From Escherichia coli (GTDB lineage Bacteria; Pseudomonadota; Gammaproteobacteria; Enterobacterales; Enterobacteriaceae), in assembly GCF_003018235.1 (NCBI RefSeq), contig NZ_CP027439.1: DNA of 64,000 bases. One strand, written 5' to 3'. Below, one piece after another: positions 1-10,535 of this stretch (position 1 is its first letter; each line of letters starts with the position of its first letter). The notes beneath the pieces are model-generated. The model had not been told where the DNA came from. It did no database searches and was given only the letters and a program-made list of their open reading frames with translations. The position numbers were made by a program, and so were the translations under genes.

Positions 1-1269
1 CGCCTGTATGCCGCGTCACGTCTTGACCCGGAGACGTATAAGAAAGTCCATGATGCCGGTTTCCGCTGGGCACCAAAACAGGCGCTGTTTGTCGCGCCAG
101 CTTGGACACCGGGCCGGGAAGATGTGCTCCTCTCACTTGCCGGAGAGATTGAGGATGAAGACAGCACACTCGCTGAACGTCAGGAAGCACGGGCGGAGCG
201 GTTTACTGGATACAGCGGAAAGCGGGCCAGTGAATCCGCACAGGCACTTGATGAAGTGGAAAGACTGGCCGCGATGATCCCGCCCGGTCAGCCCATTCTT
301 GTGGGGCATCACAGCGAACGCCGCGCCCGTCGTGATGCGCAGCGTATTGAAAACGGCATGAAACGTGCTGTGATGCTCTTTGAACGTGCAGAATACTGGG
401 AAGAGCGGGCGCGCTCGGCACTGCTTCACGCGAAGTATAAAGAACGTCCGGACGTTCGCTGGCGTCGTATCAAAAAAATCGAAGCTGATTTGCGCAAGTC
501 TGAAAAGACCATCGCGCAGTCGCAGAAATATCTGACGATGTGGCGGGCTGAATCGCTGGATCTGAATATGGCAAAACTCATCAGCAGTCATGACCATATC
601 AGCGCCTGTTTCCCGCTGGATACGTATCCGCGCCCGGCAGAAAAAAGCCAGTATGAAGGAAGTCGCTCGTTATGGTCGGCCCTGGATGATGACATCATCA
701 CCACGGAGCAGGCCCGTGAAATTGCGATCCGCTGTCATGAACGGCAGATTCAGCGTCAGCAACGCTGGGTTAACCACTATCAGAACCGCCTGATCTATGA
801 GCGTGCCATGCTGGACGAAAGCGGCGGCGTGGTTACCCGGACACAGGATTTTGAGCCGGGCGGACAGGTTTTCAGCCGGGGTGAGTGGCTGACCATCATC
901 CGCGTGAACAAAAGCAACGGGGCGGTGAGTTCAGTCACAACGCCAAATTACAGTTTTCTCGGGTACAGCGGCACGATGAAAGTGACGCCCGATCGCATCA
1001 CGGACTACAAAGCACCATCGGCAGAAGAGGCTGCCGTCGCCAGCCAGGCCGCGAAGCGTCCGCCGGTAGTCAACTATCCGGGGGAAGGTTTCCGGGAAAT
1101 GACAAAGGCACAGTGGGCCGCCCTGCCCCGGGACTGTAAGGCCGTGCGCAGTGTGGCAGAAGCAGAAGACCACGGGGCATACCGCTACCGCCGCACAATG
1201 GACAATAATTTCCGTCTGGTGAATGTGTATATCACCGACATGAAAATTACGGAAATCCCACAGAAATAA
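1..1269 (+). CDS. Leading-region protein of unknown function, 5' end lies outside the window
   Basis: Reading frame is open from window position 1 with no upstream stop; the listed 381-aa ORF 124..1269 is its C-terminal part. Sits upstream of the methyltransferase and ssb, as in F-like leading regions. Confidence 0.55.
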   Translation, partial: RLYAASRLDPETYKKVHDAGFRWAPKQALFVAPAWTPGREDVLLSLAGEIEDEDSTLAERQEARAERFTGYSGKRASESAQALDEVERLAAMIPPGQPILVGHHSERRARRDAQRIENGMKRAVMLFERAEYWEERARSALLHAKYKERPDVRWRRIKKIEADLRKSEKTIAQSQKYLTMWRAESLDLNMAKLISSHDHISACFPLDTYPRPAEKSQYEGSRSLWSALDDDIITTEQAREIAIRCHERQIQRQQRWVNHYQNRLIYERAMLDESGGVVTRTQDFEPGGQVFSRGEWLTIIRVNKSNGAVSSVTTPNYSFLGYSGTMKVTPDRITDYKAPSAEEAAVASQAAKRPPVVNYPGEGFREMTKAQWAALPRDCKAVRSVAEAEDHGAYRYRRTMDNNFRLVNVYITDMKITEIPQK

Positions 1270-2109: not shown

Positions 2110-2700
2110 TTCTTCTTTTTTCTGCTGTTCTGATTACTGCCTGTTTTGTTGTTCTCCTGCTTATGCCTTTTCCGGGCGTCCCCCTGGCGGGGCGGGCTGT
2201 CGTGAACGGAGCCAGCGAAGCTGTCTCCGCCCTGGCGGGCTTCCATCCCTGACGCGAAACCCCGGGCTTGCAGCGACCGTTCCGGTCGCGCCGCCTCTGT
2301 CGCGCCGTGGCCTGCGCTCCCGGCATCCCGGCAAAAGGCCGCCGGGATGTAAGGGGCAACGCCGTTTCGCAAACCGCGCTTCACGTCGTTGCGGCGGGTC
2401 CCTGTCCGTTGTTGTGTCCGGTGCCATTCACCTGTTTAAGCCCCTGTCGCCGGGGGCTGATACAGCCACAACCGTCTCCGCCAGTCCAGGGGTGAAATGT
2501 ACATCCCGCAAAACTTTTTGCCCAAAAGCAGGCAAAAACTTTTGCGGTCTGCCCCCGGACAGTCGTTTCCGGCCGTGGCAGTGATGCCCCTTGCGGCGAA
2601 GGTTCTCAAAAAGGTGATGGTGAATACCGGAGGGAACAAAAGGCAGGTCCCCGCAAAACGTCAAAACCGCGGCTCCCGAAACTCAAAAGATGATGGGGGC
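2110..2700 (+). promoter_or_regulatory. Frpo/ssi-like structured repeat, copy A (candidate single-strand promoter) upstream of ssb
   Basis: About 600 bp of GC-rich, hairpin-dense non-coding DNA ending just before the ssb RBS; paralogous to 7480..8125. Contains hairpin 2506..2547 (ccgcaaaactttttgcc/ggcaaaaacttttgcgg). Confidence 0.5.
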
Positions 2701-2728: not shown

Positions 2729-3558
<830 letters not shown>

Positions 3559-3621: not shown

Positions 3622-5580
3622 ATGTCAGTTACAGAGTCTAAGACAAAAACGGAGCGTAAATCCAGCCGTAAACCTGCAAAAACGCAGGAAACAGTCCTGT
3701 CTGCCCTGCTGGCGCAGACGGAGGAAGTGAGCGTGCCGCTGGCCTCACTGATTAAATCACCGCTGAATGTGCGCACGGTGCCGTATTCTGCGGAGTCCGT
3801 CAGCGAACTGGCGGACTCCATTAAAGGCGTCGGCCTGTTACAGAATCTGGTTGTTCATGCCCTGCCAGGTGACCGTTACGGTGTCGCCGCAGGTGGTCGC
3901 CGACTGGCTGCACTCAACATGCTGGCAGAGCGTGGCATCATTCCGGCTGACTGGCCTGTCCGTGTGAAGGTCATTCCGCAGGAGCTGGCGACGGCGGCAT
4001 CAATGACTGAAAACGGTCATCGTCGGGATATGCACCCTGCTGAACAGATTGCCGGATTCCGCGCAATGGCGCAGGAAGGCAAAACACCTGCACAAATCGG
4101 TGATTTGCTGGGCTATTCACCCCGCCATGTCCAGCGAATGCTGAAACTGGCAGATCTTGCGCCTGTCATCCTCGATGCGCTGGCAGAAGACCGCATCACC
4201 ACCGAACACTGTCAGGCGCTGGCACTGGAGAACGACACCGCGCGTCAGGTGCAGGTGTTTGAAGCCGCCTGCCAGTCAGGATGGGGTGGAAAACCGGAAG
4301 TGCAGACCATTCGTCGTCTGGTGACCGAAAGTGAAGTGGCGGTGGCGGGGAACAGTAAATTCCGCTTCGTGGGGGCTGATGCCTTCTCGCCAGATGAACT
4401 GCGCACCGATTTGTTCAGCGACGACGAGGGTGGCTATGTGGACTGTGTTGCGCTCGATGTCGCCCTGCTGGAAAAACTCCAGGCTGTCGCAGAGTTCCTT
4501 CGGGAAGCCGAAGGCTGGGAATGGTGCGCCGGACGTATGGAGCCTGTTGGTGAGTGCCGTGAGGATGCCGGAACATACCGCTGTCTGCCGGAGCCGGAAG
4601 CGGTGCTGACGGAGGCGGAAGAAGAACGCCTGAACGAACTGATGGCACGTTACGACGCGCCGGAAAACCAGAGTGAGGAATCCGACCTGCTGGAAGCCGA
4701 AATGAAGCTGATGCGCTGCATGGCGAAGGTCAGGGCGTGGACGCCGGAGATGCGTGCCGGAAGTGGCGTGGTGGTGTCCTGGCGTTATGGCAACGTGTGT
4801 GTCCAGCGTGGTGTGCAGTTGCGCAGTGAGGATGATGTGGCTGATAACGATTACCGCACGGAACAGGTGCAGGAGAAAGCCTCAGTGGAGGAAATCAGTC
4901 TGCCGCTGCTGACGAAAATGTCCTCAGAGCGCACGCTGGCAGTCCAGGCGGCACTGATGCAGCAATCAGACAAATCCCTGGCACTTCTGGCATGGACACT
5001 CTGTCTGAATGTATTTGGCAGTGGAGCGTACAGCAATCCCGCCAGAATCCGCCTGGAATGTGAGCATTATTCGCTGACCAGCGATGCGCCGTCAGGGAAG
5101 GAAGGTGCCGCATTCATGGCGATGATGGCAGAAAAAGCCCGTCTTGCCGCCCTGCTGCCGGATGGATGGGCACGGGATATGACGACGTTCCTGTCACTCA
5201 GTCAGGAGGTGCTGTTATCACTGCTCAGTTTCTGCACCGCGTGCAGTATCCACGGTGTCCAGACCCGTGAGTATGGTCACACGTCACGCAGTCCGCTGGA
5301 TTCGCTGGAAAGCGCCATCGGCTTTCACATGCGCGACTGGTGGCAGCCGACAAAAGCAAACTTCTTCGGACACCTGAAAAAGCCGCAGATTATCGCAGCC
5401 CTGAATGAGGCAGGACTGTCCGGTGCTGCACGGGACGCGGAGAAGATGAAGAAAGGCGATGCGGCTGAACATGCAGAGTTCCACATGAAAGACAACCGCT
5501 GGGTGCCTGGCTGGATGTGTGCACCACGCCCACAGACGGATGCCACTGAACGCACCGATAACCTGGCTGATGCCGCCTGA
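3622..5580 (+). CDS. ParB-like nuclease-domain protein (leading region)
   Basis: 652-aa ORF whose N-terminal region has a ParB/Srx-like fold signature (LLQNLVVHALPGDRYGVAAGGRRLAALNM); RBS AAGGAG upstream. Confidence 0.7.
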   Translation: MSVTESKTKTERKSSRKPAKTQETVLSALLAQTEEVSVPLASLIKSPLNVRTVPYSAESVSELADSIKGVGLLQNLVVHALPGDRYGVAAGGRRLAALNMLAERGIIPADWPVRVKVIPQELATAASMTENGHRRDMHPAEQIAGFRAMAQEGKTPAQIGDLLGYSPRHVQRMLKLADLAPVILDALAEDRITTEHCQALALENDTARQVQVFEAACQSGWGGKPEVQTIRRLVTESEVAVAGNSKFRFVGADAFSPDELRTDLFSDDEGGYVDCVALDVALLEKLQAVAEFLREAEGWEWCAGRMEPVGECREDAGTYRCLPEPEAVLTEAEEERLNELMARYDAPENQSEESDLLEAEMKLMRCMAKVRAWTPEMRAGSGVVVSWRYGNVCVQRGVQLRSEDDVADNDYRTEQVQEKASVEEISLPLLTKMSSERTLAVQAALMQQSDKSLALLAWTLCLNVFGSGAYSNPARIRLECEHYSLTSDAPSGKEGAAFMAMMAEKARLAALLPDGWARDMTTFLSLSQEVLLSLLSFCTACSIHGVQTREYGHTSRSPLDSLESAIGFHMRDWWQPTKANFFGHLKKPQIIAALNEAGLSGAARDAEKMKKGDAAEHAEFHMKDNRWVPGWMCAPRPQTDATERTDNLADAA

Positions 5581-5634
5581 TGAACAACCACACCGCCCCG
5601 CCGGAGACGGGGCGGCAGCAAGGGAGATACCGTG

Positions 5635-6069
5635 ATGAAAACTGAACTGACCCTGAATGTATTACAGACCATGAACGCACAGGAATATGAAGATATCCGG
5701 GCTGCCGGAAGTGATGAACGCCGTGAGCTGACTCACGCCGTGATGCGGGAGCTGGATGCGCCGGATAACTGGACGATGAACGGCGAGTACGGCAGCGAGT
5801 TTGGCGGCTTTTTCCCCGTCCAGGTCCGTTTCACGCCTGCCCACGAACGTTTTCACCTGGCGTTATGTTCACCGGGCGATGTCTCTCAGGTCTGGGTGCT
5901 GGTTCTGGTGAATGCCGGTGGTGAGCCGTTTGCGGTGGTTCAGGTACAGCGGCGGTTTGCACCGGAAGCCGTCAGCCATTCACTGGCACTGGCGGCGTCA
6001 CTGGATACGCAGGGGTACAGCGTTAACGACATCATCCATATCCTGATGGCGGAAGGAGGTCAGGTATGA
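5635..6069 (+). CDS. psiB: Plasmid SOS inhibition protein B
   Basis: 144-aa product starting [25 protein letters not shown], matching PsiB in length and sequence. Confidence 0.9.
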
Positions 6070-6785
6070 GCGTACGTTCACAGGCACTGGTTCCCCTCAG
6101 CACAGAGCAACAGGCCGCATGGCGGGCGGTGGCGGAGACAGAAAAACGCCGCCATCAGGGTAACACGCTGGCGGAATATCCGTATGCGGGGGCGTTTTTC
6201 CGCTGTCTGAACGGAAGCCGCAGGATATCGCTGTCTGACCTGCGATTTTTCATGCCGTCCCTGACCGCAGAAGAACTGCACGGCAACCGTCTTCAGTGGC
6301 TGTATGCAGTCGATGTGCTGATTGAAACACAGGGCGAGGTCTGCCTCCTTCCCCTTCCCGGTGATGCAGCAGAGCGGTTGTTTCCGTCGGTGCGGTTTCG
6401 TGTCAGGGAGCGCAGTCGCCATAAATCCGCGCTGGTCATGCAGAAGTACAGCCGCCAGCAGGCACGGGAGGCAGAGCAGAAAGCCCGTGCGTACCAGGCG
6501 CTGGTCGCTCAGGCTGAAATCGAACTGGCATTCCATTCGCCGGAAACAGTCGGAAGCTGGCATGCACGCTGGAGTGACCGGGTGGCAGAGCATGACCTGG
6601 AAACCCTGTTCTGGCAGTGGGGCGAGCGTTTTCCGTCACTGGCCGGAATGGAACGCTGGCAGTGGCAGGATATGCCGTTCTGGCAGGTTATTGCGGAAGC
6701 CAGTCTTGCAGCAAGAGAGGCCGGTCACGCTGTCCGTGAGATGGAGCGGTGGATGGTGCCGAACAAACTCCGGGAGGCTGCGTGA
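6066..6785 (+). CDS. psiA: Plasmid SOS inhibition protein A
   Basis: 239 aa, start overlaps the psiB stop (ATGA); conserved psiB-psiA operon arrangement. Confidence 0.85.
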
Positions 6786-7479: not shown

Positions 7480-8125
7480 ATTCTCTTTTTCTTCCTGCTC
7501 TGATTCTGACTACTGCAGTGTTGTCCTGTCTGCTAGGCGCACCTTCGGCTCCCGGCTGCCTGGCGGCATCCGGTCGTCAGGCCCGACTCCGACAGGCAGC
7601 TGCTGGCGCACCTGCCAGTCTCCGCCGAACCCGCTGGCGCGGTTTCGGGCTGTCGCTACGGTCCGATGCGTGAAAACCACAGGCTTGCAGCGACCGTTCC
7701 GGTCGCGCCGCCTCTGTCGCGCCGTAGCCTGCGCTCCCGGCATCCCGGCAAAAGGCCGCCGGGATGTAAGGGGCAACGCCGTTTCGCAAACCGCGCTTCA
7801 CGTCGTTGCGGCGGGTCCCTGCCCGTTGTTGTGTCCGGTGCCATTCACCTGTTTAAGCCCCTGTCGCCGGGGGCTGATACAGCCACAACCTGCCGCACTG
7901 ACTGTCCAGGGTAAATGAACAGCCCACAAAATTTTTTACCCAAAACCCGGTAAAAAATTTTGCGTTCTGCCCAGGACAGGTGCGTCAGGCCGTGGCAGTG
8001 ATGCCCCTTGCGGCGAAGGTTCTCAAACAGGTGATGGTTAATACCGGAGGGAACAAAAGGCAGGTCCCCGCAAAACGTCAAAACCGCGGCTCCCGAAACT
8101 CAACAGATGATGGGGGCTGAAAACC
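7480..8125 (+). promoter_or_regulatory. Frpo/ssi-like structured repeat, copy B, upstream of the orf95-like gene
   Basis: Paralogue of 2110..2700 with long identical blocks (7683..7897, 7985..8125). Hairpin 7925..7964 (cacaaaattttttacc/ggtaaaaaattttgcg) carries compensatory changes relative to copy A. Confidence 0.5.
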
Positions 8126-9660: not shown

Positions 9661-10170
9661 TTAATTGTTCTGCACGCTGTTAATTTCCGGAAGTGATTTC
9701 TTCGTGGTCGGAACCTGGATGCCTTTACTGCTCTTTATCCCGGTATAAATCCGGTAAACCTCTGATGCGTAGGCAAGACGTCTCTGGTTCTGGCGTTCGG
9801 TCTTCCTGAATCCAGCATTGTATGCACCAACGGCCTCCCAGGAGACGCCCCATTTTTTAAAGGCTATTGCCAGATAATAAGCACCGGTATAAATGTTCAT
9901 GCAGGGATCTGTTGTCAGATGTTCCGGCTTAATTCCATAGCGGGCCAGTTCGTTAAAATGCTGGGAATCTACCTGCATCAGTCCGCTGCCATATCCCGTT
10001 ACCGGATTAATACCGATGGCATTAACCCGGTAACGGGATTCTTTCCATGATATTGCTCTCAGTAAATCAGGATCTATTTTGTAATCCCGGCCTGCAAGAT
10101 CAAAGCAATCAGTGGCATGGCAGATCTCATTTATAAACATCAGGCAGATGGCTAACATCCATTTTTTCAT
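9661..10170 (-). CDS. Lytic transglycosylase (orf169 / gene 19 family, VirB1-like)
   Basis: 169 aa with signal peptide [12 protein letters not shown] and transglycosylase motifs ([24 protein letters not shown]); RBS AGGTGG. Confidence 0.85.
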
Positions 10171-10239
10171 TTTTCCACCTCTGGTGACTTTATCCGTAAA
10201 TAATTTAACCCACTCCACAAAAAGGCTCAACAGGTTGGT

Positions 10240-10535
10240 GGTTCTCACCACCAAAAGCACCACACCCCACGCAAAAACAAGTTTTTGCTGATTTTTCTTT
10301 ATAAATAGAGAGTTATGAAAAATTAGTTTCTCTTACTCTCTTTATGATATTTAAAAAAGCGGTGGTACTGACTATTTTTATAAAAAACATTATTTTATAT
10401 TAGGGGCGCTGCTAGCGGCGCGGTGTGTTTTTTTATAGGATAACGCCAGGGGCGCTGCTAGCGGTGCGTCCCTGTTTGCATTATGAATTTTAGTGTTTCG
10501 AAATTAACTTTATTTTATGTTCAAAAAAGGTAATC
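10240..10535. other. oriT: nic region, inverted repeats and direct repeats consistent with TraM binding sites
   Basis: Minus strand reads GGTGGTGAGAACCACC...TTTGCGTGGGGTGTGGTGCTTTTGGTGG (F-type nic motif, nick near 10261/10262); direct repeats GGGGCGCTGCTAGCGG at ~10403 and ~10451; AT-rich tracts. Confidence 0.8.

Follow-up and report, generated by a model that had tools for sequence, protein, structure and literature searches.

Does a ParB-like protein whose gene lies in a conjugative plasmid's leading region segregate that plasmid, or does it act on the cell that receives it? The question is raised by the gene at positions 3622–5580 of a 64,000-nucleotide stretch of Escherichia coli DNA (contig NZ_CP027439.1 of assembly GCF_003018235.1; the whole stretch is hereafter the window), which represents an F-like conjugative plasmid and carries, in its leading region, the gene block ssb-yfjA-herB-psiB-psiA. 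Across Escherichia, Salmonella, Klebsiella, and Shigella, at least 5000 plasmid records contain the block, and in them the third gene, here called herB, bears the public label "ParB/RepB/Spo0J family partition protein." As judged by sequence comparison, the gene is the orthologue of F yfjB (herB), pED208 parB2, and IncI yfhA, and we consider it probable (roughly 0.78) that its product is made in a zygotic burst from an Frpo2-type promoter, acts as a cytidine triphosphate (CTP) clamp on the host chromosome, and reprograms the host, with no part in plasmid segregation.

Identity of the 652-aa protein

The start codon of herB at position 3622 is preceded, at a distance of 7 nt, by a strong Shine-Dalgarno sequence (AAAGGAG), and the product carries the motif GGRRLAALNM at residues 91–100. 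An earlier reading of this DNA, made from the letters and the translations of open reading frames (ORFs) and referred to here as the sequence-only reading, had described the ORF, its length, and this N-terminal motif correctly, and had judged the protein to be about twice the size of partition ParBs, in agreement with the 323 aa of F SopB. Its assignment of a ParB-like nuclease domain stands in part: ParB_N is present (Pfam, residues 41–131, E 2e-7) and is followed by HTH_ParB (residues 136–222, E 2e-8), both above the gathering score, but GGRRLAALNM corresponds to Box II, through which ParB CTPases bind CTP, rather than to a nuclease motif. "Nuclease domain" is an old name of PF02195. The NCBIfam model parB_part (TIGR00180) is matched barely over its cut-off (62.9 versus 58.45 bits), and the core of ParB_N and helix-turn-helix (HTH) that is required of a partition ParB is present by both Pfam and TIGR00180.

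A 652-aa coding sequence (CDS) in the same position of F aligns with the window protein without gaps, 610 of the 652 residues (94%) being identical. Most of the 42 substitutions fall into residues 238–417 (19) and 418–636 (14), and the first of these regions, domain D3, is the least conserved relative to F (89.4%; 19 of 180 residues differ). Every residue that was mutated or contacts a ligand in the preprint on the F protein (10.64898/2026.07.07.736705) is kept at the same position, and the CTP-pocket (G91–A97, including R94, and E130) and HTH residues (R168, R172, and K175) are all present. The preprint counts as HerB those proteins in which each of 4 domains is covered to at least 80%; here the alignment spans 652/652 residues, and the domain boundaries of our AlphaFold2 (AF2) models agree with the published ones. 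In addition, synteny with F, the alignment and predicted fold of the Frpo region, and the nick site (nic) place the gene in a leading region under an Frpo2-type promoter. On all criteria that can be tested on sequence, the window protein is a member of the HerB/YfjB family. Box III is given as "M128-L132" in the preprint, yet residue 132 is Gly in both the F and the window proteins.

YfjB was renamed HerB in that bioRxiv preprint of 7 July 2026, which describes the F protein as a homodimer of 71.5-kDa subunits with D1 (residues 1–136) binding CTP, D2 (137–235) forming the HTH, D3 (238–417), and D4 (418–652). The structure of D1-D2 with CTPgammaS and Mg2+ was solved by crystallography at 2.6 Å, and D4 was found by cryo-electron microscopy (cryo-EM; 3.6 Å) to form a domain-swapped dimer. 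HerB makes nucleoid-associated foci that need R94, E130, R168/R172/K175, and D4; chromatin immunoprecipitation (ChIP) yielded 156 chromosomal peaks (20 during mating), with no parS-like motif and no F signal; and ectopic expression repressed 505 genes and induced 361. F without herB is positioned and transferred as before, its acquisition cost is ~10% higher, and it loses a four-day conjugation competition (10.64898/2026.07.07.736705). Earlier, Couturier et al. (2023) had reported that YfjB-sfGFP is made in transconjugants before and just after conversion of single-stranded to double-stranded DNA, is not detectable in donors, and needs the single-strand promoter Frpo2, with Ssb, YfjA, PsiB, and YgeA showing similar timing (PMC9849209); transconjugant-specific transcripts were confirmed by RNA-seq (PMC12672017). 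Al Mamun et al. (2021) found that ParB2 passes through the pED208 type IV secretion system (T4SS) and that without parB2 both transfer and the SOS response to mating are unchanged (PMC8406263), and Benz and Hall (2023) observed parallel loss-of-function mutations in IncI yfhA, the deletion of which increased the rate of transfer in one host strain and not in another (PMC10104558). That expression is early (2023) and that the function is not partitioning (2026 preprint) was thus already known, and on these 2 points the window adds nothing beyond another well-conserved allele; the features that go beyond the preprint are the Box I Asn, the acidic D3, and the invariant W627-x-P629.

Search for partition partners

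If the public annotation were right, the protein would be a conventional partition ParB whose ParA and parS lie elsewhere on the plasmid, a possibility to which the ParB_N and HTH_ParB domains, the parB_part score just over its cut-off, and the partition annotation in thousands of records all lend weight. The window is only part of the plasmid, so the absences reported here apply to 64 kb and a partition locus with the missing partner may lie outside it. Within it, no parA adjoins herB, whose neighbours are the DUF905 gene and psiB; tblastn returned no homologue of F SopA or SopB below E 0.6, sopC gave no match, and the deviant Walker A motif of ParA-type proteins (KGGxGK[ST]) occurs in no frame. 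The canonical parS sequence is not found above chance (3 matches at 3 mismatches, equalled by 29 of 100 shuffles), and no centromere was detected near the operon, where the sole inverted repeat of at least 12 nt between 3200 and 6200 is situated inside psiA; a divergent site could escape such sequence searches, but ChIP gave no peak on F (10.64898/2026.07.07.736705). The proposal of the sequence-only reading that the protein is not linked to a parA or parS locus is therefore borne out for the 64 kb. Nor was the C-terminal dimerisation and DNA-binding domain of ParB found, an unrelated 417-aa module being present instead.

Membership in the partition-ParB class was rejected because 3 of its defining features are missing: within the 64 kb, neither a cognate ParA nor a recognisable centromere was found, and the protein has no ParB-type C-terminal domain. 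Furthermore, a separate canonical ParB coexists with the protein in F and with its homologues in 2 distant relatives (L003 and L010), accompanied by ParA in F and L003; the F system, sopABC, is complete and situated ~8 kb upstream of yfjB. Normal positioning of F without the gene, ChIP without F binding (10.64898/2026.07.07.736705), and expression limited to new transconjugants (PMC9849209) likewise speak against partition, which is largely refuted and which we regard as highly improbable.

Early expression from the transferred strand

Placing the gene between ssb and psiB, the sequence-only reading had suggested a function expressed early in the recipient rather than partitioning. psiB is indeed the next gene downstream, but the DUF905 gene yfjA (3274–3558) separates ssb from herB, which is the third of 5 co-oriented genes (ssb, yfjA, herB, psiB, and psiA). 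A terminator scan found no terminator-like sites on the + strand between these genes, and a promoter scan found no sigma-70-like duplex sites on the coding strand from 1800 to herB. The 430 bp 5′ of ssb can be aligned in almost every column to 2 regions of F, those preceding ssb (Frpo2) and ygeA (Frpo1), and a second, near-identical copy of the element precedes the 95-aa ORF. Folded as single-stranded DNA (ssDNA), the − strand of 2265–2640 reaches −108.1 kcal/mol compared to −74 ± 4.3 kcal/mol for shuffled sequences (z = −7.9; 0 of 100 shuffles as stable), the + strand being less extreme (z = −5.1).

The F nic sequence, which we take to be GTGGGGTGTGGTGCTTT, was used to place the oriT nick at 10254–10270. 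The match lies on the − strand, which is therefore the transferred strand and the template for ssb-yfjA-herB-psiB-psiA. herB is located ~4.7 kb from the nick site and is part of the first ~6.6 kb to reach the recipient, with traM (10540) and traJ (11029) past the nick site. The suggestion of an early recipient function is thus supported by the five-gene block, the Frpo2-like fold, the strand of nic, and the lack of a duplex promoter and of parA/parS in the window, as well as by the literature on the 94%-identical F protein, the expression of which is transient, Frpo2-dependent, and confined to transconjugants (PMC9849209).

Three further observations concern this region. In alignment columns 600–700, the ssb-proximal Frpo copy of the window is nearer to F Frpo1 and its second copy nearer to F Frpo2, a crossed likeness that suggests exchange between the 2 copies. 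Just 5′ of the Frpo2-like element, a CT-rich tract contains a perfect tandem repeat of the hexamer CTGCTA (8.5 copies, 2059–2109), which has no counterpart in the F regions as far as they were aligned and is possibly a length-variable tract. Finally, the longest ORF of the SLT transglycosylase gene (9661–10270, GTG start at 10263) overlaps nic, so that the real start must be farther downstream; the public F annotation of this gene (603 nt) is equally overextended.

Structure of the C-terminal half

The sequence-only reading had singled out the C-terminal 400 aa for domain analysis. This part of the protein (~430 aa) matches no Pfam family and has no solved relative, and AF2 models built from a 79-sequence alignment divide it into 2 confident domains, D3 and D4, with a predicted local distance difference test (pLDDT) score of 90.9 for residues 236–652 and 90.0 for the full length. 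The low-confidence segments, 401–420 and 465–480, correspond to the D3-D4 linker and to a strand pairing across the cryo-EM dimer, for which low confidence is to be expected of a monomer model. Foldseek searches of the PDB with the full-length model retrieved solely ParB, Noc, Spo0J, KorB, PadC, and sulfiredoxin, over ~200 columns each: D1 matches CTP- or CDP-bound structures of ParB, Noc, and KorB at E 3e-10 to 1e-6, and the similarity to the sulfiredoxin fold is weak (E 0.018). Sequence matches in the PDB end at residue ~219, and D3, which has a net charge of −21 (40 Asp/Glu versus 19 Lys/Arg among 180 residues), has no match in Pfam or the PDB. The viral structure library BFVD gave a single match: an uncultured phage encodes a 622-aa protein, labelled "ParB/Sulfiredoxin," that shares this architecture. 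Since structure and sequence matches in the PDB stop at the ParB core and the viral library yields one protein of the same architecture, the modelled D3-D4 is, by this independent route as well, without a characterised relative.

The N-terminal half brings in a second alternative, in which the protein is a KorB-like, CTP-dependent regulator of transfer or establishment genes of the plasmid or of co-resident elements, with effects that vary with the host, and binds the chromosome opportunistically. KorB (PDB 8qa8) is matched at E 0.044 by sequence, and the D1-D2 model matches 8qa8 and 8qa9 at E ~1e-7 with a template modelling (TM) score of ~0.6. In line with such a role, the loss of IncI yfhA shifts the transfer rate in a strain with other plasmids and interacts with the neighbour ykfF (PMC10104558), and the 4 ChIP peaks in prophages (10.64898/2026.07.07.736705) would fit it too. 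However, ChIP during conjugation showed no enrichment of F (10.64898/2026.07.07.736705), deletion leaves the transfer frequency unchanged in F (10.64898/2026.07.07.736705) and pED208 (PMC8406263), and Pfam and NCBIfam scans of the window proteins revealed neither a KorB-specific domain nor a KorA partner, which leaves this alternative a slim chance.

Family and residue conservation

A phmmer search with residues 236–652 against 1.84 billion representative proteins yielded 2038 clusters at E ≤ 1e-3, 966 at ≤ 1e-10, and 89 at ≤ 1e-30, a larger set than the 429 homologues that the preprint drew from plasmid and phage databases. Full-length members have ~600–720 aa, with the match starting at residue ~200–270, and parB_part is matched by 64 of 66 members, none of which reaches the cut-offs of the PRTRC and PRK13832 models. 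In a set of 79 aligned members (27–56% identical to the query), G91, R94, N131, Q209, W627, and P629 are invariant, E130 is conserved in 98%, and S127, N49, and R51 in at least 96%.

Box I of the family reads S-P-x-N-V-R, with Asn in 77 of the 79 members, and HMMER alignments to Thermus and Helicobacter Spo0J pair Asn49 with the Gln of N-P-x-Q-P-R. In canonical ParBs, this Gln is required for CTP hydrolysis, not for binding; PDB 7bnr, a Q52A mutant of the Myxococcus xanthus protein, is among the Foldseek matches. From Asn49 in place of the hydrolysis-linked Gln, we infer that HerB-type clamps may hydrolyse CTP slowly. No CTP hydrolysis assay is reported in the HerB preprint (10.64898/2026.07.07.736705).

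Relatives in plasmids and phages

The genomic contexts of 12 members were looked up, of which 9 were informative, the contigs of P0042, P0087, and P0092 being too short. In this small sample, 6 of the 9 contexts are conjugative elements and 3 are phages. One member (P0017) has umuDC on one side and psiB-psiA on the other, an SLT gene and TraM being farther away and a separate pair of ParA and KorB-type ParB nearby; another (P0075) comes after SSB and DUF932 genes and is followed by a canonical ParB, a Rep gene, and a relaxase; and a distant member (P0029) has a DUF905 gene immediately 5′. Three members (P0136, P0083, and P0103) adjoin ArdC-type (ArdcN/MPTase-PolyVal) genes, 2 (P0081 and P0100) belong to an operon that runs from a CI-like repressor to DUF4224 and an integrase, and 1 (P0085) is flanked by a tail-fibre chaperone and by a holin. 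The preprint names 3 cyanophage homologues only (10.64898/2026.07.07.736705), and INPHARED contains 7 weak matches alone, in cyanophages and 2 gut phage contigs (best identity 31.7%). The unnamed phrog_7783 (PHROGs v4) matches the full-length protein at E 9e-251; the sequences behind it are probably plasmid-like or were predicted as prophages, and, given that INPHARED holds no close relative, it is not counted as evidence of phage carriage. The association with phages hence draws on the 3 informative contexts, the BFVD match, and the 7 INPHARED matches.

These contexts prompt a tentative proposal, in our view rather unlikely, that ParBs with D3-D4 are not specific to plasmids and serve mobile elements in general as an "entry-phase" factor, temperate phages included, where the gene would belong to the early operon from repressor to integrase. 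The Box I Asn, the very acidic D3, and W-x-P could be what lets the clamp load and stay on host DNA without parS. Were this so, the strain-specific costs of IncI yfhA would reflect conflict with factors of the host or of co-resident elements that recognise the clamp.

The same neighbourhoods bear on a third alternative, that the protein is primarily an anti-defence or DNA-protecting factor (a coat or clamp on incoming or chromosomal DNA against restriction, CRISPR, nucleases, or other immune sensors, or an Osa-like nuclease/NTPase with the ParB fold) and that the transcriptional changes are a side effect. herB shares its leading region with ssb, psiB, an orphan methyltransferase, and DUF932/ArdC-type genes, its distant relatives adjoin ArdC-type genes, leading regions are rich in anti-defence genes (PMC11541004), and the phage members sit in early operons, the home of anti-host genes. 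Yet PADLOC returned no significant defence or anti-defence match for herB (best E 0.008), for which reason such an assignment was rejected, and the conserved residues are those of a CTP switch, not of a nuclease site. The preprint, moreover, sees no plasmid enrichment and describes defined metabolic phenotypes (10.64898/2026.07.07.736705), and the pED208 deletion has no SOS phenotype (PMC8406263). The published conjugation assays used laboratory recipients, none having been found in defence-proficient ones, and the effect of yfhA deletion is strain-specific (PMC10104558), both of which leave some room for an anti-defence role; we consider it improbable.

Proposed action of HerB and its significance

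Our preferred reading remains that HerB acts on the host chromosome. In the operon and promoter context observed here, herB would be transcribed with ssb, yfjA, psiB, and psiA from the Frpo2-type promoter. As that promoter would exist solely while the incoming transferred strand is single-stranded, the protein would be made in a burst once a cell has become a transconjugant, but not by established donors. It would dimerise through the C-terminal D4, the fold of D3-D4 being novel, and its 2 ParB-like arms (D1 with the CTP pocket and D2 with the HTH) would bind CTP and DNA. Foci would assemble on the recipient chromosome at many sites without a parS-type sequence, and host transcription and metabolism would be altered, resulting in a smaller growth cost for the newly formed transconjugant. 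Consistent with the lack of partition partners in the window, HerB would play no role in segregating the plasmid. CTP binding, the dimer, the foci, the ChIP-seq and RNA-seq results, and the acquisition cost come from the preprint on the F protein; the window itself shows the orthology, the conservation of all functional residues, the operon and promoter context, the absence of partition partners from the 64 kb, and the novelty of the D3-D4 fold. The clamp may load and slide like ParB or KorB, and DNA binding may directly cause the transcriptional changes. The remaining uncertainty concerns mechanism, not identity.

Several points weigh against this reading. The functional evidence comes from one unreviewed preprint and concerns the F copy rather than the window plasmid, RNA-seq and most ChIP data were obtained with ectopic expression, and the fitness effect is modest (~10%). 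The preprint does not show where or with what partner the clamp would load, nor that it slides or hydrolyses CTP. With only 45% of the ChIP peaks falling at regulated operons, binding may not be what causes the regulation. Repeated loss of IncI yfhA and the increased transfer upon its deletion (PMC10104558) are hard to fit to a uniformly beneficial role, and the pED208 protein is also translocated by the T4SS (PMC8406263), a route absent from the model. Finally, because 19 of 180 D3 residues differ from F, host-specific behaviour could differ.

herB is carried by at least 5000 enterobacterial plasmids, many of them with resistance or virulence genes, and is routinely mis-annotated as a partition protein. 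Its identity as HerB changes the reading of these annotations to that of an establishment factor acting on the host chromosome in the first generations after transfer. Establishment is a stage that limits plasmid spread and is, in principle, targetable.

Operon and wider window

Coordinates of the features are collected in Table 1. The window begins with a DUF3560 gene and a small methyltransferase gene, followed by the Frpo-like element and the ssb-psiA block; beyond psiA are a hok-type locus, the second Frpo-like element, the 95-aa ORF, and DUF932, and then, on the opposite strand, the SLT transglycosylase gene, followed by traM, traJ, and the remaining tra genes. Farther along are traX, finO, the IncFII repA, and cargo genes.

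Table 1. Features of the herB locus and related proteins (coordinates refer to the window, except where a locus handle is given)
Feature	Residues	Nucleotides	Strand	Description
herB / yfjB / parB2 / yfhA orthologue	1–652	3622..5580 (stop codon included)	+	ATG-start ORF, 652 aa
D1	1–136	3622..4029	+	flexible basic N-terminal extension, then ParB_N CTP-binding domain
Box I SPLNVR	46–51	3757–3774	+	D1, CTP pocket
Box II GGRRLAA	91–97	3892–3912	+	D1, CTP pocket
Box III E130/N131	130–131		+	D1, CTP pocket
D2	137–235	4030..4326	+	ParB-type helix-turn-helix DNA-binding domain; R168, R172, K175
D3	238–417	4333..4872	+	mixed alpha/beta; AF2 pLDDT ~90
D4	418–652	4873..5577	+	helical; predicted dimerisation and nucleoid association; invariant W627-x-P629 near end
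W627-P629	627–629	5500–5508	+	invariant across family
Frpo2-like single-strand promoter region (putative)		2265..2700	-	upstream of ssb; hairpin forms in transferred strand, + sense transcripts
Second Frpo-type element (putative)		7660–8100		upstream of 95-aa ORF and DUF932
oriT nick-site sequence GTGGGGTGT/GGTGCTTT		10254..10270	-	exact match to F nic
ssb		2729..3262	+	first operon gene; Pfam SSB E 1e-37; NCBIfam PRK13732, 366.9 bits (cut-off 265)
yfjA homologue, DUF905		3274..3558 (longest ORF)	+	Pfam DUF905 E 7.6e-34
GC-rich hairpin		5591..5617	.	12-bp stem; in 51-nt gap between herB stop and psiB; terminator scan
psiB		5635..6069	+	SOS inhibitor; Pfam PsiB E 8e-64; NCBIfam PRK13701, 278 bits (cut-off 100)
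psiA		6066..6785	+	last block gene; Pfam PsiA E 1e-38; NCBIfam PRK13704, 421 bits
Phage/prophage HerB-family proteins		L004 8001–9995; L006 8001–10094; L009 1913–3823		29–32% identical to window protein

Gene starts in the block can be refined in places. The PRK13732 alignment begins at residue 14 of the longest ssb ORF, that of PRK13701 at residue 2 of the GTG-started psiB ORF, and the psiA start overlaps the psiB stop codon. The true start of yfjA is probably near 3325, as in F, where a 234-nt DUF905 CDS is annotated at the equivalent position. The hairpin at 5591–5617, with a sequence 100% identical in F, could be a candidate modulator of psiB translation, transcript stability, or second-strand synthesis on ssDNA.

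Upstream of the Frpo2-like element, the DUF3560 protein (381 aa, 124–1269) and the methyltransferase (187 aa, 1316–1879), which is matched by PADLOC "mad2" (E 2e-20) and by models of Type II/orphan methyltransferases, are probably leading-region genes of the anti-restriction type. At the other end, past the IncFII repA, the GC content falls to 38–45% in the cargo region (49000–61100), which encodes a tannase fragment, NUDIX and DUF554 proteins, UbiD/UbiX-type decarboxylases, a LysR regulator, an IS3-family transposase, an OmpA/BamE-like lipoprotein, and a 642-aa YadA-type trimeric autotransporter adhesin.

Comparison with known systems

The closest known system is F YfjB/HerB, with the same 652 aa, four-domain layout, position between yfjA and psiB, and Frpo2-type element upstream, whereas the backbone of the window plasmid is different, with an IncFII-type repA and other cargo. 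ParB2 of pED208 and YfhA of IncI1/IncI-gamma plasmids are products of the same gene in a conserved ssb-parB2-psiB-psiA cluster; in IncI-type plasmids, the block has ~86–87% nucleotide identity, and the protein is ~95% identical over residues 19–652. The translocation of ParB2 by the T4SS (PMC8406263) and the rise in transfer upon loss of YfhA (PMC10104558) are not explained by the HerB model.

Among other long ParB-like proteins of mobile elements, PRTRC ParB (TIGR03734) and PRK13832 (555–578 aa) have the best NCBIfam similarity, over residues 42–205. Membership in either was rejected: the protein scores 71.1 bits against a cut-off of 278.6 for TIGR03734, covering model positions 6–163 of 555, and 42 bits against 640 for PRK13832, with similarity only in the N-terminal ~160 residues.

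With canonical ParB, Spo0J, and SopB, the window protein shares the ParB_N CTP fold, Box II (GxxRxxA), the EN of Box III, and the HTH, and F HerB resembles them in being dimeric and in forming foci that depend on CTP and DNA binding (10.64898/2026.07.07.736705). Unlike them, the window protein is twice as long, has Asn49 in place of Gln, and lacks ParA, a canonical parS, and the ParB C-terminal domain, and F HerB binds the host chromosome, not its own replicon (10.64898/2026.07.07.736705). KorB of RK2, Noc, PadC, and BisD likewise use the ParB CTP switch and HTH outside segregation, for repression, nucleoid occlusion, and other functions. KorB and Noc have defined sites (OB and NBS) and C-terminal domains or partners of their own (KorA and a membrane helix, respectively), to which D3-D4 is unrelated. 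Such repurposed ParB-CTPases are, after the chromosomal ParBs, the nearest structural matches of the window protein in Foldseek searches.

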